This document shows positions 1,204-18,556 of a stretch of DNA of 50,326 bases, piece after piece. The DNA is from a virus (lineage: Duplodnaviria > Caudoviricetes). The stretch lies in the IMG/VR virus record IMGVR_UViG_3300027893_000005, positions 1-50,326 of that record, one strand, 5' to 3'. The translations under genes and the position numbers were made by a program. The notes beneath the pieces were generated by a model. That model made no database searches, was not told the origin of the DNA, and saw only the letters and a list, made by a program, of their open reading frames with translations. Numbering within the stretch: the stretch's first letter is position 1; every line of letters begins with the position of its first letter.

Positions 1204-1214
1204 GTCTTCACCTC

Positions 1215-1252: not shown

Positions 1253-1256
1253 TTGC

Positions 1257-1592: not shown

Positions 1593-1614
1593 TTCGTCAA
1601 CCTCCTTGGCTCTC

Positions 1615-1651: not shown

Positions 1652-1671
1652 ACTAGACCACAGCCCCCTCA

Positions 1672-2907: not shown

Positions 2908-2909
2908 GT

Positions 2910-3728
2910 TTACTTTTCTCCTCTGTCGTCAGCCTCCCTCTGAAGCCGGAGCGCCTCGGCAAGGTTCTGCTCGCTCAGGCCCTTCTTCTCCTGGGATTCC
3001 CAAGGACGCCCAGAAGTCTTTGGCCCTCCAGAGCTTCCACCAGCCCCAGTAGCTCCGCCGCCTTTGCGACTAGGCTTCTGGGAGGCCGCTGGGGGCTTCT
3101 TGTCCTTATCGGACGTTCCACCCTTGATAGCCTCTGCGAGAGCCTTCTCCGCATGTTCTGCCCGCAAGGAAGCCGCACGCGCTTCCATCGCCTCCGGGGA
3201 GTCGAGGTCGAGGAAGGTTTCCTTGGTGATCCCTTCCACCCCCTTCTCGCGCAGGTCAAGGGCAAGTTCCCTGGCCTTTGCGTGCCGGAGGCCCTCGTTG
3301 GCGAAGCTAAGCCTCTGCCGTGCGTCCTCCTCCACGTCCTCCAACTCGGCCAACCGCTTGAGAGCGGCCTTCTCTGCTTCAGGCGCAGCAGCGATCCGGG
3401 CTTCCCGGATGTCCCGCTTCGTCTGCTTCAGTTCCTGCCGAGTCCGCTCAAGCTCCTTCCGCAGGGTCTCCAGCTTCGGGTCGTATGTGGTCTGGGCATT
3501 CTTCCCTGCATTGGCAGCAGCGGCGTCGGCAGCGGCCTTCTCACGGTCAGCGATGACCTGGAGGATGTCAAGACCTTCGGTCTCCTTGACGACCTTGCCT
3601 ACTCTCTCCAGGCGCTGCTCTAGCGTCTCGCCACCCTGGTCATCCGACTCAGGATTCGAGTCCGAGCCCCCGCCTGAAACACCGCCATTCCCCTCGTTGG
3701 GGTTGGCGTCGGTCTGTTCGTCAGACAT
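2910..3728 (-). CDS. Capsid scaffolding protein
   Basis: Acidic disordered N-terminus, coiled coil, Gly-rich linker, short C-terminal helix; directly upstream of the capsid gene. Confidence 0.75.
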   Translation of the reverse strand: MSDEQTDANPNEGNGGVSGGGSDSNPESDDQGGETLEQRLERVGKVVKETEGLDILQVIADREKAAADAAAANAGKNAQTTYDPKLETLRKELERTRQELKQTKRDIREARIAAAPEAEKAALKRLAELEDVEEDARQRLSFANEGLRHAKARELALDLREKGVEGITKETFLDLDSPEAMEARAASLRAEHAEKALAEAIKGGTSDKDKKPPAASQKPSRKGGGATGAGGSSGGPKTSGRPWESQEKKGLSEQNLAEALRLQREADDRGEK

Positions 3729-3741
3729 GGATACAAACCTC

Positions 3742-4203
3742 CTATTCGGTTGTTAGCGCTGCGTCCGAGTAGCGGCGCTCTGAAAGCTGCGCGAATCGAA
3801 GCCCGCGCAGCGCCAATTCTTCTTCTGATGGCCGAGAAGCTCTCGGCTTTATCAGCCCAGCAAATTCGATGACCGACCTGGCCTTGTCCTGCTTCACCTT
3901 GAGATGAGGAAGAATGTGACGCAGGAATCGAATTCCCTCCGTCTTGGCCAGTTGCCACAAGTAGAATGGTTCAGGCCCAGACCTTGAGTATATTCTACCA
4001 CCCCACCGATTCTGCAACCAGTGCAGCGGGGCCGGGTCTTTCTGCCCAATCCCGACAGTGATTGAGTACCTGACTGAATAGCCTGGCCTCTTCCCTGGCT
4101 GGCAGACAACGCTGACCCAGCCCTCACCGTCGAAGAATCCGGCAGCATAGGCCCTGTCGGTCTTATTAAGGTACTTGCTCTGTCGCTTGAAGCGCCTGAT
4201 CAC
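3742..4203 (-). mobile_element. Free-standing single-motif LAGLIDADG homing endonuclease
   Basis: YAAGFFDGEG motif, then the I-CreI-like pattern IGQKD..L..LQ..WGG..ILPHLKVKQDKA; lower GC than neighbours; probable GTG start at 4203 after GAGG. Confidence 0.9.
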
Positions 4204-7200
4204 TGTACCTCTTCTCGATGGAGTATTCGAGTCGCTCGGCTGGAGGGAACCCCACACCGGGGATCGCCAAGTCCCAGCGCCTCTCATCTCCGACTTTCAA
4301 CTGCTCCAAGGTTACCACAGGGAGTCCGAGAGTGTCAAGTATCTGGTTGAACTCGTCCAGCACAGAGTAGATGTAGTCCAGCCGGGCGACCCCATCCAAA
4401 GTGTAGTAGGTCTCACGAATCTCCATGAGTCGGCCGTAGGCAGCGGCAGCCTCGGAGGTAGTGAACCCTACCGGCTCATTACCGAAGAAACGTTCCAGAA
4501 GCGGGTGAGTCTCCCACCAATCCTCCTGTAGCGCCCGCCTCATCTTCGTGGGAACGCTGGTAAGCTCACCAATGGCCAGGTAGTATTCCATCTCCTGGCC
4601 AGCCTGCTTGTACAGTTCCTGCACCGCAGAGGGCGGCTGCTTCCCACGGTTGAGGAAGAGATTGAAGTCATACCGGGACACCAGGCGCTTGCCCTCTTCC
4701 AGAAGCAGGGCCTGATCCTTGTCCCGGCGCTCGATGATTCCGGGAATATCTCGCGTGCGATTTTTTCTGGTCGCTTCATTAAGCTCGTAGCTGGCCTGGA
4801 TCGCCCTGGCGTAGTGCTTGACCGCCAACTCGAACTGGGCAGTGGCACTCATGCGACCGGGCGGTAGGTCGAGGAGGAAGTTCTGCCGGGCCTCGTCGTA
4901 CTGCTCCCTGGCAGCGGTGACCTGCTCATCGGTGGCAGCCTCCAGCGTGACGCCCTTGGGCAGGAAGTCCTCGATGCGGATGTTGTAGTAGTCGTTCCGC
5001 AGCGTCATGAGTGCGCGAGTGAACGGGGGGTGAGAGGCAGAGGGAGTCAGATCAACGTCAGCGTACCGGGCGTAGACCTGGGACACCTCATCCTGGTACT
5101 TCTTGATGACTTGGGCCTGCTCCTGCTCGAACAGGTCGCGGTAGGTGCGACCCACCTTGGTGTTGTAGAACTCTTCCTTCTCCCGGATCGCGGCCAGGGC
5201 CTCGTTCACCGGGGCCAGTTCCCGGTCGCGGGCCTCCAAAGCATCGATCAGGTCGTGCCAGAACAGGGTCTTGTGAAGCTCGGCAGTGCGCTCCTCCGGC
5301 CCAGCAAGACCAGCCAGGGCCACCCGGCGCACCTGGTACTCAGGGAACCGCTCGTAGAACTCCTCAAGCTGGCCACGAGCAGCATAGTCGCGGTACACAG
5401 GATCGAGCGCCCGCATCATCTGCTCACCTTCCGGGTAAAGCTGGATGGGAGAGAACACCCAGGAGGACATGAACCGGATGCCAGCCTCCTTCGAGGCAAG
5501 CTCGCGGGCCTCCTCCCACAGAGGGCCGGACTTGGTATCCATCGCGGCCAGGTAATCGCGGAGCAGTTCCTTGGTCTGCTCAGGGCCAATCTCCGCAGCC
5601 TTCCGGGTGTAGAGCCCGGCCAACATGCGGTCGATACGATAGGTGTCCCACTGGTCGTCTGGAATACCGATCAGGCGCTGGAGCTTGTTCAGCGGCAGCC
5701 CAGAGCCCCCGATAAGCTGCCCCATGTCATCATCGGTGAGCCAGTCCGGTAGCTCAACGTCGGCACCGTTCAGGAAGGCCATCACGCCCATCTGAGCAGT
5801 CGTTCCAGGAAGACCAAGGGGCAGAGCACGCGGCCAGTTGCGGTTCAGCCACTCGTCCCGCTCCAGGAGGCCAACCATGCTTCCTGCAATCGGGACGAAA
5901 GGATGAACAGCCGGGCCATTGTTGGACATCCAGTCCAGGATGCGCCCGGCGACGGTGGTCTGGCGGCTCTCGAAGCTCCAGTCCTGCGCCCACTGCATGG
6001 TAGGGAACAGCATAGGGATCGGATTGAAGAAGACCTTGGTAGCCGGGCCGTAAGTGGATGCCATCATGTCGCCCAGGAAAGGCACGGGCAACTCGAAGTC
6101 GCCCTCGAAACGTTGGGGGATGTCGGTGGTCATCTCTTGCATCATGTCCCAGCCAAGGGCAACAGAGGCCACGGCACCAGGATTGGAGGACGTGCGCTGA
6201 GCCCACCGCCACATCGACCGGGTGGGCCAGAAGTGATAGGGGAACACCCACTGGAGCCACTTGTCGATCCCGTACTGGCGGGAGTAGTCAAGCATCGTCC
6301 AGTCGGCAGCGGCGCGTCCGGCATTGATGGAAGTAAGCTGCAAGTCCTTGTAGTCACCACGGAGACCGCCGATCCAGTCAATGGCCTGTTGGCGCAAGTG
6401 GACGGGGACACCCTCTGGCGGCTGGGTGAGCATGTTTAGCATCTTGGGCTCGGCCCAGTCCAAGAACTCCATCGCCCAGCGGTTCTCGCCGGTGATGGCC
6501 TCAGCGGTCACAGGCATCTCGTACATGCCCATGTTGTACTCGCGCGGGCGAGGGGCCAGGCCCATCAGGTCACGCTCAGTCCGCACCTCCTGGTTGATCC
6601 ATTCATGGATGCGGCGGCGTGTCGGCCCCATTAGCTCCGCCCGCTCGTAATAGCGAATGTCCTCCCCGGCCTCCAGCGCCATGCGGAGAGCGCGGTCGCG
6701 GGCTCGCAGGGAGTCCATACGCACATCGCGGATCACGCGGAAGCTGGGCAGAAGGTTGGGGTTGAACTGGGTAATGAGGGACTCCAGGCTCTCCATGTTC
6801 AGTTCAAGCTCCCGCAGGCGGGTCTTCTCATATTCGCGCCACAGGCGGTCGATGCCCTTTTCGCCCCCCTGGTGAGCAGCGAAGATGCGGGAGCGATCAT
6901 GGCGCAAGCGCTCGTACATGGCCCTGGTGCGGCCCAGGTACTCGTCGGCCTGTTCGCGCGGAACGCCGTGGGCCAGCAACCAACGGTCAGTCATCTCGAC
7001 GCGGGTGCGGCCGAGGGCATCGTCGGCCACTTCAATGCTATAAACGTTCTCGCCGGTAGAGCCCTGTGCCTTGCGAGCAGCGCGGATACGCTGGTCAAGG
7101 TCAGCGAACTCGTCCTCCAGGCGGGCGACCTCTTCGGGGTCGGTGACCCGGCCCTCCTGGATAATGTTCTTGATCTCCCGGCGGCGGGCAGTAAGCTCGG

Positions 7201-9589
7201 CCAGGTCTTCGGCGGGCTGAGCGTCGGCAAGCTGGCCAACCGGCTCCAGGTGCTGCATCTTGCGCACCTCGTCGATGTCGCGGCGCAGAGCCACGCGCAC
7301 CTCGTCCAGACGGCGCAGTAGGTCGTCCGCGTCGGTGGCAGCCTTGAACGTATCCTGGAGGTGGGTAACCAGGCCCATCTGGTCGAAGCGCTCCTTCATC
7401 AGGCGGCGCACAGCGGGCTCAAACTTTTGGCCGCTGGCCTTCTCGATCTCACGCAGCCACCGCTCCCTGAGCACACCAACGTGCAGGGGCGGGGCACCGT
7501 CGCGGATCATCTTCTCAGCATCGTCAAGCATCTCCAGGAAGCCAGCTTCCGGGGAGGAGTCCCAGAGAGCGTAGAGGTGCTCAGACATCTCTTCCGGCAT
7601 CCCCTTGAGAAGCTCATCAGGGATAGGCTTGGCAATCTTGTGCCAGTTGTGCCGATAGGAGCGGAGTACCCCAACCTCGAACGCCTTCAGCCTAGCCCAG
7701 CCATCGAGCCATGTGGCAGCCGAGACGAACGGCACCCAGAAGCGGAACTTGGACGGGCGCACGATCTGGCCGGTAGCGCCAGGCTTGGACACACGCTGCG
7801 TAACGCCCACAAGCTGGCCAAGGGCAGAGTCGCCAGCGTTGGCCACAATGACTGACTCGTCCAGGCCAACGTTCTTGAGGTTCCGCACCATCGTGGACTT
7901 GCGGAGACCGCCACGGAAGACGCCGAAGCCATAGTCGAAGAACATGGTGGCGAAGTTGTTGAGCCCATTCAGGAGCACGAAGGAGGGGGTGTTCAGGGTA
8001 GTGGCAGACAGCAGGCGCTTGTTGAGCCCGAACAGCTTATTCATGGCATTGTCCGGGTGGATGTCGTAGGCGGCAGCGATGGCCTTGTAGACCCGCTGGT
8101 TGACCTCCTCCAGGAACTGCATCCGCCAGGCGTCGTGCCCCCGCGAAAACTGGCGAGCGACCTTGGCCGCAGCCTTCGGGCTCTTGGCCATAGCCTCGCC
8201 CATGAGTGTATCGTACTCAGTGGGATCAAGGATTGTGCGCTTCAGGCTCTGGAAGGCGGACGGGCGTACCTGGTAGGCGTCGAAGATTTGCGACAGTCTC
8301 ACGGCCGTCTCATTCTGGGCAAACAGCCTGGGCATGTGGGCCGGAAGCTGGTCAACGTTGCCGGTGCGCATCGCGTCGAAGAACAAGGACACGTCCTCCG
8401 GGCGCACGCGGACATCACCGGTCATCTGCGCGAACATCGTGAACCCCTTGCGCCACAGCACGTCAGCATTGTGTTCCGGGGTAGCCTGCCACAGGCGAGC
8501 CCACCACGACGGCGGGCCAGTCTTCTCCCTGAAGCGCAGGCCACGTTCGATGATCCGCATGGAGCGGGCCTCGGCTTCCTCAATGGCCCGCAGCTTGTGA
8601 GGGGGGCCAAGGATAGAGCGAGCGAGGCTGGCTACCCGGCGCACACCGGGAATCTTGGAGATGACGGCCTCACTCCGAGCGGCCTTGTACAGGTTGATCG
8701 GGGCCTCGCCGCCACCGATCACGCCGAACTCGGCAATGAGACCAACCTTTCTCATTCCCTTGACACCCTGGAGCGGCTTGGCGATGAAGCCAGCGCCACC
8801 AACGAGCCACAGAGGGTCGTAGATGACCTTCAAGGCGGCGTCGGCCCAGAGGTTGCCATACTTCTGCATGATGCCAGGGTTCTCAGGGTCGTCGTTGTTC
8901 CAGTCCTCCCCCCGCTGCATGGCCCTCTCGACTTCCTTGATGTAGGTGCCAGAGAAGTCGCCATGCTGGAGAGAGGTTCCAATGATGTCGTAGTACATGG
9001 AGGCAAGCTCCCAGCGGGAGTAGCCGTCTGGCACGTCGTTGTACCAGACGTAGGTCATAGGGTAGCCCAGAACCTGCTCCGTCCGGTCTGATGTCCACTC
9101 CAGAGCGTCCATCGTGGCACCGAACACGTTGCCAGCCCGGTCAGCGAAAGCGCCGCCCAGCCTCTCCCAGAAGCCCCGGCTGGGCTTGGGGGCGACTAGC
9201 TTCCACTCCTCCTCGGTGACCGGCATGATACGACCGCCAGTCTCGGACTCGATCTCGCGGATGACGCGATAGCGCTCCGTCTCGGGAAGGAAGCGAAGAA
9301 GCTCACGCGAGAGAACCTCCTGTTTGGAGGGAGAGAGACTGGACATGGCCAGGTCAATGTCCTGGAAGACGGACACGCCCTCTGGCCAGTTGCCGGGCAA
9401 GACGTTCTGCTCGACCATGCGCTGGGTGAAGCCTAGAGGAGCACCCTCCACAGCCTCTGGCGCACGCTCAAGGTCACGCTCGGCTATGACAGCCTGCGGA
9501 TCAAAAGGAGGAGCCGTGGGCTTCGGGACGCCCTCATCAAGCGCCTGAAACTCACGCTCCGCTTGCGAGAGAAAGCGGTCGTCGGGCAT
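4166..9589 (-). CDS. Large internal virion (ejection) protein, 1807 aa
   Basis: Very long, mainly helical ORF between portal and scaffold, translationally coupled to the upstream gene; position typical of podovirus ejection proteins. Confidence 0.7.
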   Translation of the reverse strand: MPDDRFLSQAEREFQALDEGVPKPTAPPFDPQAVIAERDLERAPEAVEGAPLGFTQRMVEQNVLPGNWPEGVSVFQDIDLAMSSLSPSKQEVLSRELLRFLPETERYRVIREIESETGGRIMPVTEEEWKLVAPKPSRGFWERLGGAFADRAGNVFGATMDALEWTSDRTEQVLGYPMTYVWYNDVPDGYSRWELASMYYDIIGTSLQHGDFSGTYIKEVERAMQRGEDWNNDDPENPGIMQKYGNLWADAALKVIYDPLWLVGGAGFIAKPLQGVKGMRKVGLIAEFGVIGGGEAPINLYKAARSEAVISKIPGVRRVASLARSILGPPHKLRAIEEAEARSMRIIERGLRFREKTGPPSWWARLWQATPEHNADVLWRKGFTMFAQMTGDVRVRPEDVSLFFDAMRTGNVDQLPAHMPRLFAQNETAVRLSQIFDAYQVRPSAFQSLKRTILDPTEYDTLMGEAMAKSPKAAAKVARQFSRGHDAWRMQFLEEVNQRVYKAIAAAYDIHPDNAMNKLFGLNKRLLSATTLNTPSFVLLNGLNNFATMFFDYGFGVFRGGLRKSTMVRNLKNVGLDESVIVANAGDSALGQLVGVTQRVSKPGATGQIVRPSKFRFWVPFVSAATWLDGWARLKAFEVGVLRSYRHNWHKIAKPIPDELLKGMPEEMSEHLYALWDSSPEAGFLEMLDDAEKMIRDGAPPLHVGVLRERWLREIEKASGQKFEPAVRRLMKERFDQMGLVTHLQDTFKAATDADDLLRRLDEVRVALRRDIDEVRKMQHLEPVGQLADAQPAEDLAELTARRREIKNIIQEGRVTDPEEVARLEDEFADLDQRIRAARKAQGSTGENVYSIEVADDALGRTRVEMTDRWLLAHGVPREQADEYLGRTRAMYERLRHDRSRIFAAHQGGEKGIDRLWREYEKTRLRELELNMESLESLITQFNPNLLPSFRVIRDVRMDSLRARDRALRMALEAGEDIRYYERAELMGPTRRRIHEWINQEVRTERDLMGLAPRPREYNMGMYEMPVTAEAITGENRWAMEFLDWAEPKMLNMLTQPPEGVPVHLRQQAIDWIGGLRGDYKDLQLTSINAGRAAADWTMLDYSRQYGIDKWLQWVFPYHFWPTRSMWRWAQRTSSNPGAVASVALGWDMMQEMTTDIPQRFEGDFELPVPFLGDMMASTYGPATKVFFNPIPMLFPTMQWAQDWSFESRQTTVAGRILDWMSNNGPAVHPFVPIAGSMVGLLERDEWLNRNWPRALPLGLPGTTAQMGVMAFLNGADVELPDWLTDDDMGQLIGGSGLPLNKLQRLIGIPDDQWDTYRIDRMLAGLYTRKAAEIGPEQTKELLRDYLAAMDTKSGPLWEEARELASKEAGIRFMSSWVFSPIQLYPEGEQMMRALDPVYRDYAARGQLEEFYERFPEYQVRRVALAGLAGPEERTAELHKTLFWHDLIDALEARDRELAPVNEALAAIREKEEFYNTKVGRTYRDLFEQEQAQVIKKYQDEVSQVYARYADVDLTPSASHPPFTRALMTLRNDYYNIRIEDFLPKGVTLEAATDEQVTAAREQYDEARQNFLLDLPPGRMSATAQFELAVKHYARAIQASYELNEATRKNRTRDIPGIIERRDKDQALLLEEGKRLVSRYDFNLFLNRGKQPPSAVQELYKQAGQEMEYYLAIGELTSVPTKMRRALQEDWWETHPLLERFFGNEPVGFTTSEAAAAYGRLMEIRETYYTLDGVARLDYIYSVLDEFNQILDTLGLPVVTLEQLKVGDERRWDLAIPGVGFPPAERLEYSIEKRYSDQALQATEQVP

Positions 9590-10125
9590 TACCCCAGCAT
9601 CTCGTCCTGGCGGTTCACCAGGTTCTGGCGCACAGCGGCCAGAAGCTCGTCACGGGACGGTGGACGGCCCTGCTCGCGCTCGAACCGGCGACGCAGGCTA
9701 ATGATGGACAGATCGGCATCGGTCGGGTAACGACCGTACCGCCGATAGAAGCGCTCGCCAAAGTTGGTGGCAGCGACGTTCGTCCCCTTGGCGGTGGACT
9801 CCACCAAGTCCGAAATCGGGAACTCCTCGTCTACGGTAGGAATCGACATAAACCTTGACGCGGGTTCCGTCGTACCACGGGGGCGGGCTGGCGTCCGAAC
9901 CAGAGTGGTATCCGCAGCCTTCGGTGTCGAGGCAGGAGTACCCGCAGGCTGAGCAGACGACGCGGGCGCGGCTGGCGGTTGGCTCGGGCGGACGTTCACG
10001 GGCGGTGCCTGCTGGCCCACGCCACCGGGCTGTGGTACGTCCATCAGTTTCTGCTGGGTCTGGCCCCTGCGTAGCTCCCTGTCCAGGAACGGGGTTCCCC
10101 CTTGTCCCTTCTTCACTCCAGGCAT
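9589..10125 (-). CDS. Hypothetical virion protein, Pro/Ala-rich (178 aa)
   Basis: Stop overlaps the next start; lies in the structural operon. Confidence 0.65.
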   Translation of the reverse strand: MPGVKKGQGGTPFLDRELRRGQTQQKLMDVPQPGGVGQQAPPVNVRPSQPPAAPASSAQPAGTPASTPKAADTTLVRTPARPRGTTEPASRFMSIPTVDEEFPISDLVESTAKGTNVAATNFGERFYRRYGRYPTDADLSIISLRRRFEREQGRPPSRDELLAAVRQNLVNRQDEMLG

Positions 10126-10127
10126 GT

Positions 10128-10385
10128 CTAAATCCCCCTACGAACTTCCTTAGCAACCAACTTGTGAATGTCCTCGTCGGTAAGCTCACCCTTCTCCTCG
10201 ATAAGGCGAAAGAGTGCAGACCGTGGGACGGGCCGGTCGGTGATCCGAGCAACCCTGGCGTCCAGGTCATCGGCCTGTGTGCCCTTCTCAGCAGCCTCGC
10301 GCTCTTGGGCTATGCGCTCAGCCTCCCTACGCTCATCCATCAACTTGTCGATGTAGGCATCCGCCAACGGGTCGGGACTGTTCAT
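10128..10385 (-). CDS. Hypothetical protein (85 aa)
   Basis: TAATG coupling with the upstream gene; GAGG RBS. Confidence 0.65.
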   Translation of the reverse strand: MNSPDPLADAYIDKLMDERREAERIAQEREAAEKGTQADDLDARVARITDRPVPRSALFRLIEEKGELTDEDIHKLVAKEVRRGI

Positions 10386-10990
10386 TAGAACCTCAACCTC
10401 CGTGGCGTGATCGAAGGAACACCACCCCGGCGAGCCCCCCGGCGCTCCGGCGCGGCCATCTCCATCTCCTCGCGGACGTTGATACCACGCAGGAACTCGG
10501 CGGCTGTCAGGGTAGGAATCTCGCCGGTCTCAGCGAACTGCCGCTGCACCTGCTCCTCGTAGCGCTGCTCAAGCTCAGGCTCCATGTAGCGCAGGAACTC
10601 GGCCTCCTGGCGAGTCCAGCCAGGGGTAGGACGCCGGGCAGCCTCACCAACGAGGCCGGGCATCTGGGCCTGCTCCATGCGCGTGAGCCCACCGATCTCC
10701 TGGAGAAACGCAGGCGCGGAGAGCCAAGTGCGGAAGGCAGTCGTGAACTCCTTCAACATCTCCCCGAAAAGACCGCCAGCCTCTGCCTGCATCTCTCCAG
10801 TAGGAGCAGCAGACGGGGCCTGCGTCACCGAGGAGGCAACGGTTTCCGGTAGAGTCAGGGCAAGCCCCTCGACGAGCCCGTCCGCAGTAATCGCAGGATT
10901 CAGCGACAGAAGCTCGTCAAGGCTGATGCCCATGCGCTCTGCGAACTGCTCCAGGGTCTCACCCGCTCGTAGTTGTCCAGTGTTGGCCAT
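10385..10990 (-). CDS. LysM-domain virion protein
   Basis: N-terminal LRAGETLEQFAERMGISLDELLSLNP..LVEGLALTLP matches the LysM consensus. Confidence 0.8.
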   Translation of the reverse strand: MANTGQLRAGETLEQFAERMGISLDELLSLNPAITADGLVEGLALTLPETVASSVTQAPSAAPTGEMQAEAGGLFGEMLKEFTTAFRTWLSAPAFLQEIGGLTRMEQAQMPGLVGEAARRPTPGWTRQEAEFLRYMEPELEQRYEEQVQRQFAETGEIPTLTAAEFLRGINVREEMEMAAPERRGARRGGVPSITPRRLRF

Positions 10991-12243
10991 TATTCGTAGA
11001 TTCCCTCCTTCACTACGAAGGCCGGGGCTCCACTGCTGCTGACTCCGGGAGCGAGACCCCCTTCCTCAGCGACGAACTTGGCCCCTGCCTCCGGCTGATA
11101 AGCGGGAAGCTCAGGTATAGGATACCCCTCTTTGCGCAGCCAGTCAATGAAGTCGCCCTCGAAGACCCCACGGGCAGCGGCGGACAGGAAGCGGTCTCCC
11201 TGCACGGTGGCAGCCTGGCGGGAGAAGAGAGCACCACGCAGCGGCTCGCTCATCGTCGGGCCGAGCAGCCTGTCCAAGGTGCTCATGACGAAGGAAAACC
11301 GAGAGCGCGGGTCTTCGTACCCACCGGTCAGGAACTGGCGGGCGAAGCCACCCATGCCCTCGATACCGGCAATGACCGACTCGCGGGAGGGGAATCCCTC
11401 GGTAACGACTTGGTTAATGACTCGGTTAAGCTCGACGGCACCGCCAGGAGACTTCAGGATGTCCTGCCCCTCGCGGGTGGATGCCAGAAGCACCATCGAC
11501 GGCACCAGGTCTCGCAGGAAGCCATAGATGGGAGGCGACGGGACGACACCCGCCTTGTCGAACATGGCCTGGAGGAAGGCTTCCGGCTCCTCCAGGGCCA
11601 GGCGCTGGAGCCCAAACTTCTCACCGATGCCCTCGACGCCAAGCTCGTCCAGTTGTTCCGGTGTCAGGGCCGAGAAGACATCCCCGATCTGGCCAGCGAC
11701 TGCACCAACGTCGGGAGAGGCAGACGGGCCAGCCTCGGCAGCAGCGCGTCCCTCTTCGGTCGGGAACTCCCACACACCGCCTTCCCCCAACTTGGGGGCG
11801 TCGGCAGGGCGCTCACCACCGGCGTTGAGGTACTGCATGTACTCCTGGGGAGTCATGCCCATCATGGTAGCCTCGATCTGTATCTGCTGCGACAGCTTCT
11901 CGCCCAGGTAGGCAAACGGCTCGGTCAGCGGATCGCTCAAGGTGAGACCAAACGCGCGGGCCTCAGCAGCCTCGCCGGTGGTGGGCTTCTGGGCGGCACG
12001 CTCGTGCTGCCACGACGTGAACTCCTTGTCAAGCTGCTTCCGGGCACTCTTGATCCGCTCAAGGGCAGTCTTCTCATCAGGGAAAGCGTTCCAGAAGCCT
12101 TGCGCGGTAGCGTCAGGCCAGCCAGCCTTGTCCAGGTAGTTCAGATACCACACGATGAACTCGCGCGATAGGCCAGACCTGCGCACAAGCTCGTCCAAGG
12201 GATCACGCTTGGGTTCGTACTCCGGCTGTCCACCAATAGGCAT
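10990..12243 (-). CDS. Probable internal virion/ejection protein (417 aa)
   Basis: Coupled to the portal stop (TAATG); helical composition; synteny. Confidence 0.6.
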   Translation of the reverse strand: MPIGGQPEYEPKRDPLDELVRRSGLSREFIVWYLNYLDKAGWPDATAQGFWNAFPDEKTALERIKSARKQLDKEFTSWQHERAAQKPTTGEAAEARAFGLTLSDPLTEPFAYLGEKLSQQIQIEATMMGMTPQEYMQYLNAGGERPADAPKLGEGGVWEFPTEEGRAAAEAGPSASPDVGAVAGQIGDVFSALTPEQLDELGVEGIGEKFGLQRLALEEPEAFLQAMFDKAGVVPSPPIYGFLRDLVPSMVLLASTREGQDILKSPGGAVELNRVINQVVTEGFPSRESVIAGIEGMGGFARQFLTGGYEDPRSRFSFVMSTLDRLLGPTMSEPLRGALFSRQAATVQGDRFLSAAARGVFEGDFIDWLRKEGYPIPELPAYQPEAGAKFVAEEGGLAPGVSSSGAPAFVVKEGIYE

Positions 12244-14180
12244 TAGACTACTTCCTCAGCGGCACCGGCCGGGGTGGGCGCTACGCCCTCCCTTCCGGAC
12301 TCAATGCCCGCCGTTTCGGGCGGGGCTGCTTCGGGCCGTGCCATTGCAGGCGACGCGGTTACCGGTCTACCGGGGGCTCCGCCCTCACCGGCGAGTTGGG
12401 CCATTAGCCGAGCCTGCATGACCTGCTGGGCAAAGGCCATCATGAACGCCTTGTCACCGAAAATCTTGGCGATCTCCGGCATGCCACGAGCGGTCATCCG
12501 GCTCTGCAACCTCAACATTACCACAATCGGGTCAAGGTCTGCAATGTCATCGAACAGCAGCTTCTTCTCTCGCTCGGCGTCCTCCCATTCCAGCACCTGG
12601 TCGAAGATGGTCTGGATGCTGGCCAGTGGTCGGGCAGGATTGGCAAGCTGGGCGGCGATGTTGACGCGCACTGCCAAGTCGTCAGGCAGCGCGGGCTTTG
12701 CCTTCATCTCAACGTAGACGACCTCCTGGATAATGTCAGGGCCAAAGTTCAGCTTCATCAGGCGACGGCCGGAGCCCTCAGCGATGACCGTGAACTCCTT
12801 GCCGGACTTGTGGTAAAGCTGGTTCATCAGCGACTGGGCGATCTCTGTGGCCCAGAACTCGTAAGCCTCGATCCAGGGGCCGAGGGAGTTGAGCGCAGCG
12901 TTCTCCATCTGGGAGCGGAGGAAGCCGGAGCCCTGGAACTGCTCCAGACCGCGCAGCAAGCGCTGGTCAATCGTGCCCTGGGCAATCTGCATACCGATGA
13001 ACTCCAGGAGGCGGTAGGTGTCGGGGCTCGCAGCCATGCCAGCGACGCGCTCAAGCGACTCCCCGATCTTCATGGGGTTGACGGCATTGCCGCCGATGAT
13101 AACGTCACGAAGCTCTCCGGTGCGGGTGCGCTGCACCCAAGTGCCGAAGGCGTCGTTGTCCATGATCTGCCAGATGATGGACACGATCTCGTTGAATTGG
13201 GGCACCGCGTCCTCAACGGCAGCCAGGATGGAGCGGCCTTGGTCAGCTACCCAACCTCCCTGCCGCTTCCAGATGGGAAGGTCGGGCCTCTTGGTGATCA
13301 AGTCTTCGGGGCCACGGCCAATGATGTTGCTCTCGATCCGCTTGGGAGTGTTGAAGAACGGGAGGCCGTGGCTGGGAACGATAATGGCAGGACACGCCGG
13401 GTTGTCGCGCTCGTCCTTGATCTCGTGCAGGCTGGGCGGATCGGCCCAGACGAGCCACTCAGCCGGACGGCCGTAGTTGCGGGGATCGCCCGTGGCTCGC
13501 TTCTTCGGGTGGGTGATGGCCAGGCCCTCCTGGTAGCGATCCCAATACTCGTACTGGGTAACCCACATTCCCAAGTCTTGCTGGTACTTGCCCTCCCTCA
13601 GTAGCTCCTTGACCTTCAGGTTGTTCTCGATGTCGGGGAAGCTCTCCAGGATGTCACCCCAGGTAGTCAGCGACTCGTAGATGACGGACTGGAGCCCACG
13701 GCGGTCGAACATCGGGTAGACGAAGCGCATGTCCCAGGGCTCGTAGTCGAGGGGCTCGTCCTCGTCACGGACAACGAAGCGGGAGGCAGCCCACCCGCGC
13801 AGGAGCAACTGCCAGGCGGCGACCTTGCGAGCGGACGGAAGGCCACGCCGGTTCATCTGCCGATCAAGGTCACGGAAGCAGCCCTTGATCCCGAACTCCA
13901 GGAGCCCAACGTCGTCCCGCTTTGCATCGGGCTCAACGTAGGTCATCGGGATGCGAGGCTTGAACGGGTTCCTGGACATGGTACTCACGCTCAGGTCGAG
14001 CAGGGTGCGGGGCTCGTTGGAGGTGAAGCGGACGGTGCCCTTGGGCTTGGCAAGCTGATGCTCGTCTACGAGGAGGTACATCATGTGCCACACGTCCATC
14101 CGGTCGTCGCGTGGCTTCATATCGCGCTTGCGATACGTGATCTGCTGCTGAAGGTCTGGAATCTCAATCAGGTCGGGCAT
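12243..14180 (-). CDS. Portal protein
   Basis: About 645 aa downstream of the terminase, with podovirus portal size and pattern; likely start MPDLIEIP at 14180 after AGGTG. Confidence 0.8.
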   Translation of the reverse strand: MPDLIEIPDLQQQITYRKRDMKPRDDRMDVWHMMYLLVDEHQLAKPKGTVRFTSNEPRTLLDLSVSTMSRNPFKPRIPMTYVEPDAKRDDVGLLEFGIKGCFRDLDRQMNRRGLPSARKVAAWQLLLRGWAASRFVVRDEDEPLDYEPWDMRFVYPMFDRRGLQSVIYESLTTWGDILESFPDIENNLKVKELLREGKYQQDLGMWVTQYEYWDRYQEGLAITHPKKRATGDPRNYGRPAEWLVWADPPSLHEIKDERDNPACPAIIVPSHGLPFFNTPKRIESNIIGRGPEDLITKRPDLPIWKRQGGWVADQGRSILAAVEDAVPQFNEIVSIIWQIMDNDAFGTWVQRTRTGELRDVIIGGNAVNPMKIGESLERVAGMAASPDTYRLLEFIGMQIAQGTIDQRLLRGLEQFQGSGFLRSQMENAALNSLGPWIEAYEFWATEIAQSLMNQLYHKSGKEFTVIAEGSGRRLMKLNFGPDIIQEVVYVEMKAKPALPDDLAVRVNIAAQLANPARPLASIQTIFDQVLEWEDAEREKKLLFDDIADLDPIVVMLRLQSRMTARGMPEIAKIFGDKAFMMAFAQQVMQARLMAQLAGEGGAPGRPVTASPAMARPEAAPPETAGIESGREGVAPTPAGAAEEVV

Positions 14181-14185
14181 GTCAC

Positions 14186-14359
14186 CTACCCCGTGCTGTG
14201 CAACAGCGTCCACACACCGATGTCAATGCAGACGTAATGCTTCCTGGTATTGGTAGTGTAGAACTCGTCTCCGGGGTTGGGAGAGACGGCGTTCTTGTCG
14301 CTCTCGCTCCCCTTCCACACCTTGGTGCCGTTTCGGTCATGGATAAACACAGCGGCCAT
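14186..14359 (-). CDS. Small protein with fibre-like motif (57 aa)
   Basis: GGAGGG RBS; PNPGDEFYTTNTRKHYVC..GVW motif. Confidence 0.6.
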   Translation of the reverse strand: MAAVFIHDRNGTKVWKGSESDKNAVSPNPGDEFYTTNTRKHYVCIDIGVWTLLHSTG

Positions 14360-14370
14360 AGCACCCTCCA

Positions 14371-15981
14371 TTATAGCGTGTTGGGACGGAACTGTACAGG
14401 CTGAGTCCGTCCCTGATTTGACACCGGCGGCTGGAACTCGCGGGCAACGAGGCCAATGCCAAGGGCCATAGCGTAGTCATCGTGCTCGCCCGGCATGGCC
14501 TCCAGCCGGGGGCGACCAGACGAGCCTTCCTTCTTCGTCCAAACGAGACTGACCAACTCCTGCAACCCGCGCTGATCCCAGCAGACCAGGCTCCCGCCAG
14601 GAATGTGCTCCATCAGGGCAGACTGGAGCATCGGGCGAGTGCGAGCGTCAGTTCTCCAGCCCACGTCGCCTACGTACTCAGGACGGCGTGGGTCGATGCC
14701 GTAGTACAGATTCGGGTACTGCCACTTGTTCTCCAGGTCTTTGCCGGTGGCGTAGCCGATTCCGGGCCAGGTCTCAGGCACAAGCATGGCCTCATTATAG
14801 TAGTAGCCCATCTTGACCAGAATCTCAGCGGCCTCGGTGGGGTCAACCATGTTGTCGTAGTAAGCGGCCACCACCTCTAGAGTCTGGTAGTCGAGCACAG
14901 GGGCGGCAAAGAAGTCATCGCCGCAACCCTCAGAGATGTCGGCCGGGATGAGATACTGGCGACCGGGAAGCGGCTCCTTCCAAATCCACATGTGGTTGAC
15001 GTACCGGCGGAAGTCCTCACCAGGTCGCTCCGGCAGCCCCCTCTCTATTGGCTCCCGCGAGTCTCTCATCAGGCGCTGGATGGTCTTCATGTCAAAGGGA
15101 GACTTGGCACCAGCGGCGAAGCAGGTGATCGGGTCTTCCGGGTACTCCTGCTCGAACGGCTTATCAGTCAGGGCAAGCTCAGCAGCCTTCATCCTGCGCC
15201 AGTGGATATGGGCATAGGTCAGGCCGTGCTCACGCATAAGGTACTTCTCCTGCTGCGTGAGGTCTGTGATCGGATCATCCTTGTCCGAGATGTACTCAGC
15301 AGTCTCCCACCAAGGGTAGAAGAACAACTCCCAGTGACCGCCGATCCCGGCCTCACGGCCACCACCAGCGGCCTTGACCACGTTGTGGAAGACGCCACCG
15401 GCCCCATTGGGGGTGGACTCGATGTCAACTTCGCCATCCACCGGGACGGACTGAAGGGCACCGGTGACGGTCTCTACCGGGTGAGCCCAGTGCGCCACCT
15501 CGGTGCAGTGGAGACGATTGACCGTCCACGCGCGGCCCACGCCCTCACCCTCGGCAGTCTCAAACAGGATGCGCGAGCCCAGGCCGGGGAACTCCAGCAT
15601 GTCGGCATTGTCCTCGCCAACGACCGGTGCAAGCCCAATACGCTTCAGGTCGCTGAGATGCTGCTTATAGTGGGCGCGGAACAGCTTCAGGGTGGGGGCA
15701 TCCTGGGCGATCACGAGGACGGTAAAGTTGGGCGTGGTCATGGCATCCATCGCGTTGTGGGCAACAATGATGGCGGACTCCCCGATCTGGCGCGGCTTCA
15801 GGTGCACGCGACGCCGAGGATGGTCAACGACTGTAGCCCGCAGGATAAAGTCGCGCTGGTTGGGCCACAGTTTGAAGGCTACGATACGATTGTGCTTGTC
15901 CGGGACAGTCAGGAGCCCCTCAATCCGCTTGATCGGGTCGAAAAGCACCTCAGTCTCGGCCAAATCGGTGCCATTGCGCAT
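14371..15981 (-). CDS. terL: Terminase large subunit
   Basis: Walker A LKPRQIGES, Walker B LHCTEVAHW, coupling motif ESTPNG, RNase H-like nuclease motifs ADISEG and HDDYAMALGI. Confidence 0.95.
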   Translation of the reverse strand: MRNGTDLAETEVLFDPIKRIEGLLTVPDKHNRIVAFKLWPNQRDFILRATVVDHPRRRVHLKPRQIGESAIIVAHNAMDAMTTPNFTVLVIAQDAPTLKLFRAHYKQHLSDLKRIGLAPVVGEDNADMLEFPGLGSRILFETAEGEGVGRAWTVNRLHCTEVAHWAHPVETVTGALQSVPVDGEVDIESTPNGAGGVFHNVVKAAGGGREAGIGGHWELFFYPWWETAEYISDKDDPITDLTQQEKYLMREHGLTYAHIHWRRMKAAELALTDKPFEQEYPEDPITCFAAGAKSPFDMKTIQRLMRDSREPIERGLPERPGEDFRRYVNHMWIWKEPLPGRQYLIPADISEGCGDDFFAAPVLDYQTLEVVAAYYDNMVDPTEAAEILVKMGYYYNEAMLVPETWPGIGYATGKDLENKWQYPNLYYGIDPRRPEYVGDVGWRTDARTRPMLQSALMEHIPGGSLVCWDQRGLQELVSLVWTKKEGSSGRPRLEAMPGEHDDYAMALGIGLVAREFQPPVSNQGRTQPVQFRPNTL

Positions 15982-15997
15982 GAGCGCCTCCTTTTCG

Positions 15998-16276
15998 CTA
16001 CTTGGCAGCGGTCTTCTGGCCCTTCTTGAGCATGTTGAGGTACATCAGGGCCTGTTTCTTGGCCTTCGGGCCGTACCGACCGGCGGCAGCCGCCCGAACC
16101 TTGCTCTCAGGAATCTTCTCGTCCTCTGGGACACCCAGAGAGCGATGCAGACCGCCCTTCTCAAAGGTCACCGGCTCCTGCCCCTTCTTCTGGGGCTTCA
16201 TCGTGACCTTCTTTGACTTGGAACGGCCCTTCTTCCCCTTCAGGCCCTTCGCAATGCGAGACTCATGGGTTGCCAT
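15998..16276 (-). CDS. Small basic phage protein (92 aa)
   Basis: Lys-rich; KGGLHRSLGVPEDEKIP motif of a type seen in small phage proteins near terminase genes. Confidence 0.7.
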   Translation of the reverse strand: MATHESRIAKGLKGKKGRSKSKKVTMKPQKKGQEPVTFEKGGLHRSLGVPEDEKIPESKVRAAAAGRYGPKAKKQALMYLNMLKKGQKTAAK

Positions 16277-16280
16277 GCGC

Positions 16281-16451
16281 TCAATCCCCCCTCTTCTTGG
16301 GGCTGAACCGCCTCTTACGATTCCGCCGCTGCTTCATACAGCGCTTCCGCATCTCGACGGGGGTCTCCTTGACCATTTCCTTGCCCCACGCCTCGCCTCT
16401 ACCGGCTGCTGCGGCCGCTGCACGGTACTGATCACAGTTCTTAGCTGGCAT
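16281..16451 (-). CDS. Small basic protein (56 aa, below the ORF-track cutoff)
   Basis: Manual translation MPAKNCDQYRAAAAAAGRGEAWGKEMVKETPVEMRKRCMKQRRNRKRRFSPKKRGD; fills the gap in the operon. Confidence 0.65.
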   Translation of the reverse strand: MPAKNCDQYRAAAAAAGRGEAWGKEMVKETPVEMRKRCMKQRRNRKRRFSPKKRGD

Positions 16452-16710
16452 CTCTACCCTCTACGGCCCTCAAACGCTTGTCTAGCTCGGCCTCCAGGCC
16501 CACAATACGGGCCTGGGCGACCAAAACGGCCGTCTTGAGGTCAGAAATCTCGCTCCGGAGGCAATGAACCTCATCGTTGCACGCCTTTTTCGCCTTCAGG
16601 CAGGCATCCAGAGCCCTCTTCGACCGGAAATGGGCCAAAATCAGGCCAAAAGCGCCTCCCATGAGGGGCGGAACGACGGTTCTCAGGACTTCCAGAGCCA
16701 GATTTTCCAC
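16441..16710 (-). CDS. Single-TM coiled-coil protein, holin-like; first gene of the late operon
   Basis: GTG start with AGGAGG; N-terminal hydrophobic helix followed by heptad repeats. Confidence 0.55.
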   Translation of the reverse strand: MENLALEVLRTVVPPLMGGAFGLILAHFRSKRALDACLKAKKACNDEVHCLRSEISDLKTAVLVAQARIVGLEAELDKRLRAVEGRDAS

Positions 16711-16715
16711 TTTTT

Positions 16716-16828
16716 CCTCCTCGCTCTCCTATAGCTGTGGGGGCCGAGTGAAGGAGGCGGACACCCGACCCCCGGCGACGCATCCCCCGTAGGGGATATT
16801 GGGCAGCAGAGTGCGGAGAGCGGCACTC
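16716..16828 (-). ncRNA. Structured 5' leader RNA (three hairpins, two loop-RBS pairings)
   Basis: P1 GAGUGC/GCACUC, P2 AUCCCC-UACG-GGGGAU, P3 12-bp stem; loops complementary to GGAGAGCG and AGGAGG just before the start codon. Confidence 0.7.
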
Positions 16829-16834
16829 GACTAT

Positions 16835-16864
16835 AGCTTACGGGAGCGAAATCGGAGTTGTCAA
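16835..16864 (-). promoter_or_regulatory. Late-operon sigma70-type promoter
   Basis: TTGACA-18 nt-TAAGCT; predicted +1 at about 16828 coincides with the first base of hairpin P1. Confidence 0.75.
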
Positions 16865-16994
16865 GCTCTTTTCCGGGTTCTCATAGAAAATTTTTATCGG
16901 GAGGATGGTCTGGGCGGGCCTGGCGCATATCATTGAATCATTTAACACCCCTCTGACGACCTGACACTTATTAATATCTTAGGGTCTGGACGTG

Positions 16995-17023
16995 TTGCTT
17001 GATTAAATGTTTTGTGGTACAGT
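16995..17023 (+). promoter_or_regulatory. Promoter for the RHH-tRNA unit
   Basis: TTGCTT-17 nt-TACAGT with extended -10 TG. Confidence 0.65.
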
Positions 17024-17044
17024 AGTAGTGAGGAGGTGAGAGAG

Positions 17045-17293
17045 ATGATCTCACAGCATGTAGGAGTCCTCATCCCTGCCAAGCTGCTAGAGTGGCTCGA
17101 CGAAGAGGCCGAGAAGCGCGGCATGACCCGCAGTCGCACGGTCGCTACGATTCTCCTGGAGCAATCCGGGCTTGACCTGGAGCTTCCCCCGCGCGGGCGA
17201 AGGATCGAGACAGAACGCAAGCGTGCCATCCGGGAGATCGGAGAGGCCACCGGGCAGGTTCCCATTCCCGGCAGCAACCTGCCATACTATTAG
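17045..17293 (+). CDS. Ribbon-helix-helix (CopG/Arc-like) transcriptional regulator
   Basis: HVGVLIPAKLLEWLDEEAEKRGMTRSRTVATIL fits the RHH pattern; GAGGAGGTG RBS before ATG 17045. Confidence 0.8.
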   Translation: MISQHVGVLIPAKLLEWLDEEAEKRGMTRSRTVATILLEQSGLDLELPPRGRRIETERKRAIREIGEATGQVPIPGSNLPYY

Positions 17294-17298
17294 GGTAC

Positions 17299-17372
17299 GG
17301 GCGCTTAGTTTAACGGAAGAACGCTGCGCTCCAAATGCAGTAGCGGGGGTTCGATCCCTTCAGCGCCCGCCA
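17299..17372 (+). tRNA. trnW: tRNA-Trp(CCA)
   Basis: Acceptor GGGCGCT/AGCGCCC, anticodon arm CTGCG-CT-CCA-AA-TGCAG, TTCGA T-loop, G73, encoded CCA. Confidence 0.95.
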
Positions 17373-17375
17373 AGG

Positions 17376-17450
17376 TGCAGGGTCGTCTAGCGGTAGGACA
17401 CCTGGCTCTGAACCAGGAGATCGGAGGTTCGAATCCTCCCCCTGCATCCA
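17376..17450 (+). tRNA. trnQ: tRNA-Gln(CUG)
   Basis: Acceptor TGCAGGG/CCCTGCA (U1-A72), anticodon arm CCTGG-CT-CTG-AA-CCAGG, GGTTCGAATCC, encoded CCA. Confidence 0.95.
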
Positions 17451-17656
17451 CTCTCCCCCACTAGTAAAGCTCCCTTAACTTCCCCACATCGTTAATAAAG
17501 ATCGCGTAGGCTTCGTCCTGGTACGAGGTATATTTGGCCAATTTTCGCCCCGCGCTGTCAGAGGACTAGAAACAAATGGGTAACGGAGCCGGGTGCGCCG
17601 GAACGAAGCGGTGTGGAATTGAATCCGCGCCGCGCGGACATGATTTTGGTCGGCTC

Positions 17657-17817
17657 GAACAAATTTTCAGAACAAATGTGCCAAATGTGCGGAATTAGCA
17701 CAGGCGTTCTTGCGTATACGTGTATTCCCCCATCGATGACACATCTGTTTGCCAAGAACAAATGTTTCAGCGCGTGCGTACTATCCGGTCTGGTGTGAAA
17801 AAATCGCACGCATGTTC
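17657..17817. promoter_or_regulatory. Cluster of Gram-positive-type LexA (SOS) box-like sites
   Basis: Five 7/8 matches to GAAC-N4-GTTC at 17657, 17670, 17698, 17756 and 17806, all with RNRY spacers; a weaker one at 17739. Confidence 0.65.
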
Positions 17818-17913
17818 GCTCGTGCTGGCTACGTCAGCGTGCGACCAGATAAAGCACTCGCAGTTTAAACAGTCCTTACAGTTTTAACATGACAAACTGA
17901 CACTTATATCGCA

Positions 17914-17942
17914 ATGCACAACGTCTATGCACAACGTCTATG
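17914..17942 (+). repeat. Tandem 13-bp direct repeat
   Basis: ATGCACAACGTCT twice, followed by ATG, in the non-coding control region. Confidence 0.85.
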
Positions 17943-18072
17943 GGCACGCACGCGCGGAATAGAGAATGGCTATAGATTGGCATAGCCTATCACTCAGGGA
18001 GGTAGGTATCGAGGCCGTCTATATCGAGGCACCAATCGGCGGCTGATAATCTTAGGAAAAGGTTGACAAGCG

Positions 18073-18081
18073 TGGTAAAAT
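18073..18081 (+). promoter_or_regulatory. Probable early promoter (extended -10)
   Basis: TG-G-TAAAAT upstream of the first early gene; the nearby TTGACA (18063) is not at canonical spacing to it. Confidence 0.45.
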
Positions 18082-18156
18082 GACCCTAGAGACTGTAACA
18101 TCCGGAGGCTTCGAGCGTCTTTATATCTGGAGACGTTTCGAAGGGAGGCGAGGCAG

Positions 18157-18369
18157 ATGCTAAAGCTCGCACGCGAGCAGAAGATGGCCATGCGTTATCT
18201 CTCGCGCAAGGGCAAGGTTGTTTCCGCCCATAGCGTGAGGGAATATGTCAGGCACTACACGCATAGGCACCACGGGAAGCACGCTGGTGCGTTTGACCCG
18301 TGCGCGAACTTCCCGAAGCCTATGTTCCACTTGGTGCCTGCCTCGGAAGTGAGGCTAGACTATGCCTGA
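18157..18369 (+). CDS. Early hypothetical protein (70 aa)
   Basis: GGAGG/GAGG RBS; first of a chain of overlapping ORFs. Confidence 0.65.
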   Translation: MLKLAREQKMAMRYLSRKGKVVSAHSVREYVRHYTHRHHGKHAGAFDPCANFPKPMFHLVPASEVRLDYA

Positions 18370-18556
18370 ACCACGCATACCGAAGCTAACGCCAGAAGAG
18401 GCAAACATGGCGTACACGGCCGCGCATGCTGAGAATGTGACGCTGGCGTTTGTGCTCCACTATCTACACTGGGCAAAGGCACGAGCCCAGATGCTAGACA
18501 CCATTGTCCAGACGAGGCAGCTAACGCTCATAGGCGAGAAGGGAGGGAGCGAATGA
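18362..18556 (+). CDS. Early hypothetical protein (64 aa)
   Basis: GAGG RBS; overlaps neighbours at both ends. Confidence 0.6.
   Translation: MPEPRIPKLTPEEANMAYTAAHAENVTLAFVLHYLHWAKARAQMLDTIVQTRQLTLIGEKGGSE

Follow-up and report, generated by a model that had tools for sequence, protein, structure and literature searches.

The window analyzed here is one entire uncultured virus record of 50,326 bases (IMGVR_UViG_3300027893_000005; Duplodnaviria, Caudoviricetes) with an estimated completeness of 99%. On its minus strand, between positions 16828 and 16716, lies the 5′ untranslated leader of the mRNA of a structural (terminase, portal, head/tail) operon, and we found this leader to be a real, evolutionarily conserved folded RNA. 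Two of its hairpins, P1 and P3, are maintained in four other leaders, and the compensatory changes seen in those four are the strongest evidence that the structure goes beyond chance. Both hairpins present CU-rich loops that are complementary to the purine-rich ribosome-binding tract of the first cistron. Judging from these sequence comparisons, we favor, with somewhat less than even confidence, the reading that the leader attenuates translation in cis through anti-Shine-Dalgarno (anti-SD) pairing and, in addition, caps the message at its 5′ end. The five leaders (n = 5) are denoted W for the window, L002 and L004 for two viral contigs, and L129 and L130 for two metagenome contigs.

Architecture of the leader in the window

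The helices, the loops and the 14-nt purine tract of the original prediction, which was made from the letters of the window, were all located exactly where it had placed them:

16828-16809, minus strand: P1, GAGUGC[CGCUCUCC]GCACUC, 6 bp, with an 8-nt loop (loop 1) at 16815-16822
16804-16807, minus strand: GCUG, which could pair with CAGC at 16734-16737 as the 5′ strand of a helix closing the junction
16797-16782, minus strand: P2, AUCCCC[UACG]GGGGAU, a variable, optional hairpin
16773-16739, minus strand: P3, GGGGGUCGGGUG[UCCGCCUCCUU]CACUCGGCCCCC, 12-bp GC-rich stem with an 11-nt loop (loop 3) at 16751-16761 that contains the anti-SD-like GCCUCC
16738-16730, minus strand: linker ACAGCUAUA, containing CAGC at 16734-16737
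16729-16722, minus strand: distal motif GGAGAGCG, with the distal GGAG, 5′ half of the ribosome-binding tract
16721-16716, minus strand: Shine-Dalgarno (SD) sequence AGGAGG, 3′ half of the 14-nt purine tract 16716-16729
16710-16708, minus strand: GUG start of cistron 1, after an AAAAA spacer

As had been proposed, loop 1 in the window is a perfect 8-nt complement of GGAGAGCG, and CCUCCU(U) in loop 3 pairs with (G)AGGAGG, giving 7 bp to GAGGAGG; that is, complements of 8 bp (loop 1) and 7 bp (loop 3) lie upstream of the ribosome-binding tract on the same transcript. The short GCUG/CAGC helix that had been suggested to close the junction is likewise present and appears in the minimum free energy (MFE) fold of the window. 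Closure at the same offsets is possible in three of the five leaders (GCUG/CAGC in W, GCCC/GGGC in L129 and L130, with the latter pairing seen in the L129 MFE fold) and not in L002 or L004, for which other closing pairings of 4-6 bp can be drawn by eye, and we regard the closing helix as unproven.

The leader folds better than its shuffles, though not dramatically, with a z-score of -2.14 for 131 nt (5 of 200 dinucleotide shuffles fold equally well) and of -2.49 for the 121-nt leader. No known riboswitch or ribozyme had been recognized in the original prediction, and a covariance-model scan of 15500-18500 on both strands with Rfam 15 (E ≤ 10) agrees with this, giving no match within 16708-16832. 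The nearest weak matches, at 16569-16610 (15.8 bits, E 3.3) and 16908-16970 (13.9 bits, E 1.4), are far below gathering thresholds, and the only significant matches in the scanned region are two tRNAs. A terminator scan called no minus-strand terminator-like site between the leader and cistron 1, and P3 itself was rejected as an intrinsic terminator because it is followed by ACAGCUAUAGG without a U-tract. We also rejected a 47-amino-acid open reading frame (ORF) within the leader (16683-16826), since the P2 length differences among the relatives break its frame.

Conservation of the helices

In a model-guided alignment of the five sequences, standard pairs occupy all of the P1 and P3 cells (85 of 85), and 6 of the 18 pairs have changed on both sides, two of them in P1 and four (of 12) in P3. 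All six P1 pairs are retained in every leader, with two-sided changes from A-U to G-C and from C-G to U-A, while P3 measures 10-12 bp and the stems of the two subgroups of leaders differ at half of their positions. The covariation score was 0.522, as against 0.272 for column shuffles (0 of 500 reach the observed value) and at most 0.111 when the partners were slid by 1-3 columns. RNAalifold, run on the same rows, independently gives P1, part of P2 and P3. Among the paired cells, 10 of 85 are G-U and none is a mismatch, with one P3 column being G-U in four of the five leaders; this combination argues for pairing in the RNA of this strand, and not in a DNA palindrome or the opposite strand. Covariation analysis of homologous leaders, named at the outset as a way of checking the structure, therefore bears out P1 and P3 as real helices. 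P2 fared otherwise: a different hairpin stands in its place in L004 and L129, it is much longer in L002, and it is absent in L130, so the cUNCGg tetraloop to which attention had been drawn is a feature of the window only, and P2 is not conserved.

Complementarity between the loops and the ribosome-binding tract

The sequences of the two conserved loops are as follows:

W and L002: loop 1 CGCUCUCC, loop 3 UCCGCCUCCUU
L004: loop 1 CGCUCUCC, loop 3 CGCCUCCC
L130: loop 1 CUCUCUAC, loop 3 UUGCCUCCG
L129: loop 1 CCUCUGCG, loop 3 UUGCCUCCG

Loop 1 has 8 nt, is CU-rich and keeps CUCU, as CUCU(CC), in all five leaders, and the GCCUCC core of loop 3 is invariant. These sequences are retained while the stems change and the protein of cistron 1 is only 33-47% identical. 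Every leader also has a GA-rich tract with at least two GGAG motifs that ends 3-5 nt before the start codon, and each loop can form at least 5 contiguous pairs with this tract in all five, with register and partner order varying. In the window, the loop-1/tract duplex is predicted at -15.3 kcal/mol, a value reached by a fraction of 0.0003 of 3000 random window 8-mers, and the loop-3/tract duplex at -12.6 kcal/mol, reached by 0.024 of 3000 random window 11-mers; across the five leaders, the duplexes range from -7.7 to -15.3 kcal/mol, and 9 of 10 are equaled or bettered by no more than 5% of random genomic k-mers. As taken from the alignment, the loop-3 strings of L129 and L130 contain the G-C pair that closes the loop; the 9-nt loop without that pair can form helices of 8 bp with two or three G-U pairs, or of 6 bp. 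Comparison of L130 (UCUCUAC:GUGGAGG) with L129 (CCUCUGC:GCGGAGG) reveals one candidate compensatory change between loop and tract, from A-U to G-C, which depends on the register chosen.

The expectation that homologs would preserve the loop pairings therefore holds in part: both loops are CU-rich and complementary to the tract in five of five leaders, and only the window shows the exact match over 8 nt. Helices of 5 bp or more allow the arrangement originally envisaged, in which loop 1 takes the distal motif and loop 3 the SD, in W, L002, L129 and L130, and loop 1 is able to pair with the proximal SD at 5 bp or more in all five leaders. Because the partner order is not conserved (the envisaged one being possible in four of five) and the register varies, a fixed double pseudoknot is not established.

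Nested folds offer the tract further partners. In the nested MFE folds of W, L004 and L129, the 5′ CU-rich segment pairs with the tract and P1 is opened, and in that of L130, loop 3 together with the 3′ strand of P3 pairs with the tract and P3 is opened. In the L002 fold, part of the tract pairs only with the linker just after P3; considered apart from this fold, the L002 loops still have 5-6 contiguous pairs to the tract. Enforcing P1 costs 3.6-9.3 kcal/mol relative to the MFE in W, L004 and L129, and the MFE folds of L130 and L002 already contain P1. The tract thus has a strong upstream intramolecular partner in four of the five leaders, be it through a pseudoknot or a competing helix.

Promoter and predicted transcription start

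Directly upstream of P1 lie the two hexamers of a promoter:

16859-16864, minus strand: -35 hexamer TTGACA, invariant in all five leaders
16835-16840, minus strand: -10 hexamer TAAGCT, after an 18-nt spacer and 6 nt before P1, geometry conserved in all five leaders

The -10 hexamers read TAAGCT in W, TAAGAT in L002, TATCCT in L004, TAATAT in L130 and TAGTAT in L129. All five leaders share the order of TTGACA, an unconserved spacer of 17-18 nt, the -10 hexamer, exactly 6 nt and then P1, and because this geometry is constant, we infer that transcription starts at or adjoining G16828, the first base of P1. The claim of a leader RNA beginning at about +1 of a host-type promoter ahead of the structural operon is thereby strengthened. 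A second -10-like hexamer at 16831-16836 (minus strand; TATAGT in W, TTAAGT in L002 and TATAAT in L004) is seen in the W subgroup only, where it overlaps the last two bases of the -10 hexamer and the 6-nt stretch before P1. TATAGT was rejected as the true -10 hexamer, as the spacer would be 23 nt and the hexamer is not shared with L129 or L130.

The operon and the placement of the leader

The genes around the leader in the window are the following:

16441-16710, minus strand: cistron 1, 89 amino acids, GTG start
16281-16451, minus strand: cistron 2, 56 amino acids
15998-16276, minus strand: cistron 3, 92 amino acids
14371-15981, minus strand: large terminase (PHROG 2, E 1.5e-25)
12243-14213, minus strand: 656-amino-acid ORF, putative portal by our own reading
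17012-17293, plus strand: ribbon-helix-helix (RHH)-like gene, 93 amino acids, diverging from the operon
17299-17450, plus strand: tRNA-Trp(CCA) and tRNA-Gln(CUG), directly after the RHH-like gene

The minus-strand ORFs run from about 16.8 kb to base 1 and are tightly packed, many of them sharing 1-base overlaps; those that follow the portal are taken to be structural genes, and we call the operon "late" from its gene content alone. The remaining plus-strand genes diverge from the same region as the RHH-like gene and the tRNAs, so that the leader sits between divergent gene sets, in the control region from which the structural operon starts.

The protein of cistron 1 is hydrophobic at its N-terminus and contains a coiled coil as well as a conserved CNDEVH motif. 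It gave no match in Pfam or PHROG and fell in unnamed Atlas clusters only, so the description of the first gene as holin-like finds no support. L004 does without cistron 1 altogether, and its leader stands directly before a homolog of cistron 2 (55% identity over 40 amino acids, E 6e-9), which indicates that the leader belongs to the start of the operon and not to gene 1. In all four members that have cistron 1, its last codons are overlapped by the start of cistron 2 (ATGCCAGCTAA/G), at these positions:

W: 16441-16451
L002: 970-980
L129: 2399-2409
L130: 366-376

This overlap suggests translational coupling, and later genes of the operon overlap by 1 nt. With cistrons overlapping or abutting in this way, the setting of the first ribosome-binding site could propagate down the operon. 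The products of cistrons 2 and 3 are small and very basic, with tails rich in Lys/Arg; neither has a Pfam or PHROG family, and both are candidates for nucleic-acid binding. In a further close relative, L131 (terminase 88%), the place of cistrons 2 and 3 is taken by a 145-amino-acid ORF (165-602) with a LAGLIDADG-like motif (..AAGLLDGEGTVG..), which is possibly a homing endonuclease insertion.

The 93-amino-acid plus-strand protein has weak, sub-cut-off Pfam matches to RHH_1/RHH_5 and a PHROG transcriptional-repressor match (E 0.0029). By eye, the same gene also lies upstream of the leader in L002, L004 and L129. The stretch between the RHH gene and the operon promoter (16880-17012 in the window, 370-470 in L002, 3320-3410 in L004 and 1800-1945 in L129) contains long inverted repeats in the relatives, with arms, again by eye, of about 21 nt (L002), 29 nt (L004) and 20 nt (L129) and a partly conserved core (..TAATAAGTG.CAG.TCG.CAGAGGGGT.. 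in W and L002). In the window itself, just one repeat of 10 nt and 90% was found there (16936-16945 / 17003-17012). These repeats near the promoter may serve the RHH protein as an operator, or they may form another RNA.

Proposed mechanism and alternative explanations

Under the attenuator reading, transcription from the TTGACA-N17/18-TAnnnT promoter would begin at or beside the first base of P1, and the nascent RNA would fold in order, P1 with its CU-rich loop, the dispensable P2 and then the strong P3, the loop of which presents in GCCUCC the same core as the ribosomal anti-SD. When the GA-rich tract with its two GGAG motifs emerges about 10 nt after P3, the preformed loops would capture it through loop-to-single-strand contacts of the pseudoknot type or, in some members, the tract would be taken up by a long-range nested helix that opens P1 or P3. 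Such loop or helix contacts would compete with the 30S subunit and lower initiation at cistron 1, an effect that could spread along the operon through the overlapping or abutting cistrons, and P1, at the extreme 5′ end, would probably protect the message too. A more ambitious proposal is that the leader represents a new class of cis-regulatory RNA in which two preformed loops, one of them mimicking the anti-SD core, jointly clamp a tandem SD as a double loop-to-strand pseudoknot, gating the translation and, by coupling and polarity, the expression of the whole structural operon until a phage or host factor releases the clamp to time late expression; this we consider possible and rather doubtful.

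Several observations weigh against the attenuator or against a fixed double pseudoknot. Loop 1 can form an 8-bp helix in W, but the helix has 6 bp in L002 and L004 and, with G-U pairs included, 5-7 bp in L129 and L130. The L130 loop 1 ranks no higher than the best 14% of random 8-mers, and full 8-nt pairing of an 8-nt loop is sterically doubtful in H-type pseudoknots. In L004, the only partner of at least 5 bp for loop 3 lies upstream of that of loop 1, which makes the claimed order impossible there at this length, and the reverse order is possible in others. The CU loops and the GA tract are of low complexity and allow many registers, and tandem GGAG motifs precede other genes of this phage as well, so the "double" tract is not unique to the leader. 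The proximal SD, at 0.26 unpaired, ranks in the middle of 62 candidate starts, many of them spurious, a figure that is uninformative because the nested ensemble behind it ignores pseudoknots. The alignment was fitted to the structure of the model and leans towards it, and with just five members in two subgroups, the independent events are few. A sigma-70 scan called 0 sites in 15500-18500 and so missed the window promoter, because TAAGCT matches the -10 consensus at only 3 of 6 positions. Finally, timing could instead be supplied at the level of transcription by the divergent RHH gene and the inverted repeats.

The leader might be mainly an mRNA stabilizer, with the 5′-flush P1 and the stable P3 shielding the operon transcript from 5′-end-dependent decay and the loop complementarity a by-product of CU-rich loops and a purine-rich ribosome-binding site. 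We consider this unlikely, though deserving of serious weight, since it would accommodate the start of P1 6 nt after the -10 hexamer in five of five leaders (at about the predicted +1), the maintenance of the stems by compensation, the variable register of loop-tract pairing and the purine-rich tandem SDs that are common in this phage, and a stabilizing role of 5′ hairpins is mentioned in PMC2790875; yet it leaves unexplained the retention of CUCU and GCCUCC in all five loops amid changing stems, and the candidate loop-tract compensatory change between L130 and L129. Hairpins directly after the promoter of a long operon could also form a platform for a protein or RNA polymerase, either as a put-like cis antiterminator of the roughly 17-kb operon or as an operator for a phage RNA-binding protein (cistrons 2 and 3, with their Lys/Arg-rich products, would be examples), the loops acting as recognition elements. 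The conserved loop sequences and junction bases (GCCC after P1 in all five leaders) and the persistence of the leader with the promoter even where cistron 1 is absent would suit such a platform, but a scan for Rho-independent terminator-like sites showed no excess over shuffles, with 8 sites in 1-17000 (shuffle mean 9.8) and 3 around the leader (2.5 in shuffles), Rfam gave no match, and nothing connects any protein with the leader RNA, which makes the platform distinctly unlikely in our view.

We rate as improbable a switch that would sense a ligand or temperature by exchanging P1 or P3 for a long-range helix sequestering the tract: the freed strands of P1 (W, L004, L129) or P3 (L130) do pair with the tract in the nested MFE folds, P1 must be enforced at the energy cost given above, and P2 resembles the variable peripheral stem of many riboswitches, but no Rfam riboswitch matched, the alternative helices differ among members, few unpaired junction bases are conserved across both subgroups, and no conserved pocket appears. 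Release of the leader by processing as a trans-acting small RNA (sRNA), whose C-rich loops would mask the SDs of host or other phage messages late in infection, is very improbable; its two unpaired C-rich loops resemble those of the UCCC-loop regulators treated in PMC2790875, but neither a terminator nor an evident processing site lies between P3 and the start codon, and the best complement of the loops is in cis, about 10-25 nt away. As for a DNA-level element, such as palindromic operators or a packaging site beside the terminase genes, P1 and P3 are inverted repeats, with the large terminase gene following about 0.75-0.85 kb downstream of them, but the 10 of 85 G-U cells would be A-C mismatches in DNA or on the other strand and mismatches of the opposite kind are not seen, so that we give this explanation hardly any credence.

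Relatives and the search for further members

The large terminases of the two viral contigs are 87% (L002) and 78% (L004) identical to that of the window, and terminase alignment led to the two metagenome relatives (69% for L129 and 72% for L130). R1, a covariance model based on the leaders of W, L002 and L004, recovered those of L130 (29.2 bits, E 2.7e-6) and L129 (15.9 bits, E 0.018), both at the expected site upstream of the same gene set. The known family thus comprises five members, all environmental: the window, two viral contigs and two metagenome contigs. Four other relatives (L003, L126, L127 and L131) are too short upstream to contain the leader, and another, L132, covers the 3′ part of the terminase gene only.

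Attempts to enlarge the family, including a search of 185,579 representative genomes, did not succeed. A distant blastn search of INPHARED phages with 15900-17300 gave no match, and terminase alignment against genome contigs found no relative. In the viral contigs, alignment of the cistron-1 protein returned only the L002 contig, and a loose two-block DNA pattern matched at least 117 stretches; among the matches listed, R1 hit only L112 (the L002 contig) and L108, a 12.1-bit match that we attribute to chance. A search with the P1 20-mer matched L112, L125 (the L004 contig) and L124, the last being a chance match within a coding region that lacks P3, and a degenerate promoter-plus-P1 pattern, with the loop and P3 left free, returned L112 and L125 and nothing new. 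A second pattern, of the L129/L130 type, occurred in 11 stretches with 0 R1 matches, and L143, the sole match of an 18-mer of that type, was rejected as lying within a polymerase-like coding region. The composite leader pattern found three stretches in genome contigs, all below 10 bits with a second covariance model (R2). With filters off, R2 detected no second leader in the window, and none of its matches in 16 loci that were distant or truncated was credible; the best of them (L136, 13.8 bits) falls within a coding region and was rejected.

Sequencing runs that contain the sequence of the window are labeled as marine sediment or seawater metagenomes. Contigs of four DNA runs are identical to the window wherever they cover 16400-17050 and hold no usable micro-variation, and a run look-up found no RNA run containing the leader stretch.

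Relation to known RNAs and significance

To our knowledge, structured RNAs that regulate in cis have seldom been described for the late operons of phages, and hardly ever for uncultured phages; a literature search on anti-SD pseudoknots in phage returned nothing beyond general reviews. In the preQ1-II and SAM-II riboswitches, the SD joins a pseudoknot helix with a hairpin loop, as may be possible in the leader; unlike the leader, these riboswitches have ligand pockets and a defined consensus, and none of them matched it in Rfam at E ≤ 10. The put RNA of HK022 resembles the leader in position, as its cis hairpins immediately follow a phage promoter that serves a long operon, but put suppresses terminators via RNA polymerase and has no anti-SD loops, whereas no excess of terminators is seen here. 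Stabilizer hairpins of the ompA type are flush with the 5′ end of the transcript and need no conserved loop or complement of the ribosome-binding site; the leader resembles them in that P1, 6 nt after the -10 hexamer in all five cases, is predicted to be flush with +1.

In mechanism, the Firmicutes C-rich-loop regulators appear to be the nearest to the leader, followed by the pseudoknots at the ribosome-binding sites of the alpha operon and rpsO. For the former, unpaired C-rich loop motifs are described as pairing with SD sequences and blocking the initiation complex (PMC2790875). RNAIII and RsaE/RoxS, the UCCC-loop RNAs of this group, also share with the leader the use of C-rich hairpin loops against the SD, the presence of several loops and a 5′ hairpin; a C-rich motif in hairpin loops is found in all five leaders. 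However, those RNAs act in trans as separate transcripts and carry their own terminators, whereas the loops and target of the leader are on one mRNA, about 10-25 nt apart after P3, and the leader has no terminator of its own. The leader has no sequence relation to RNAIII or RsaE/RoxS, to judge from the Rfam result. In the E. coli alpha operon/S4 and rpsO/S15 systems, translation of the operon is regulated through a pseudoknot where ribosomes bind the first cistron, as may also happen here, but those systems are described as requiring a repressor protein and acting by entrapment (PMC10931766), and their folds and sequences are unrelated to those of the leader. The leader differs from them also in having two separate hairpin loops that could contact one tandem SD tract.

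We regard the leader as a new, very small RNA family, belonging to no named one, whose proposed mode of action, SD sequestration in a structured leader, is a known kind of regulation. Its reach is limited to five members, all on environmental contigs, and it combines comparative support for its helices with a simple, testable design. If the loops clamp the tract, the leader would be a cis use of the principle of a C-rich loop set against the SD, known from trans-acting sRNAs, and would constitute a compact, portable translational throttle. If they do not, the leader would remain a new, conserved motif that shows where the structural operon begins in this group of phages.

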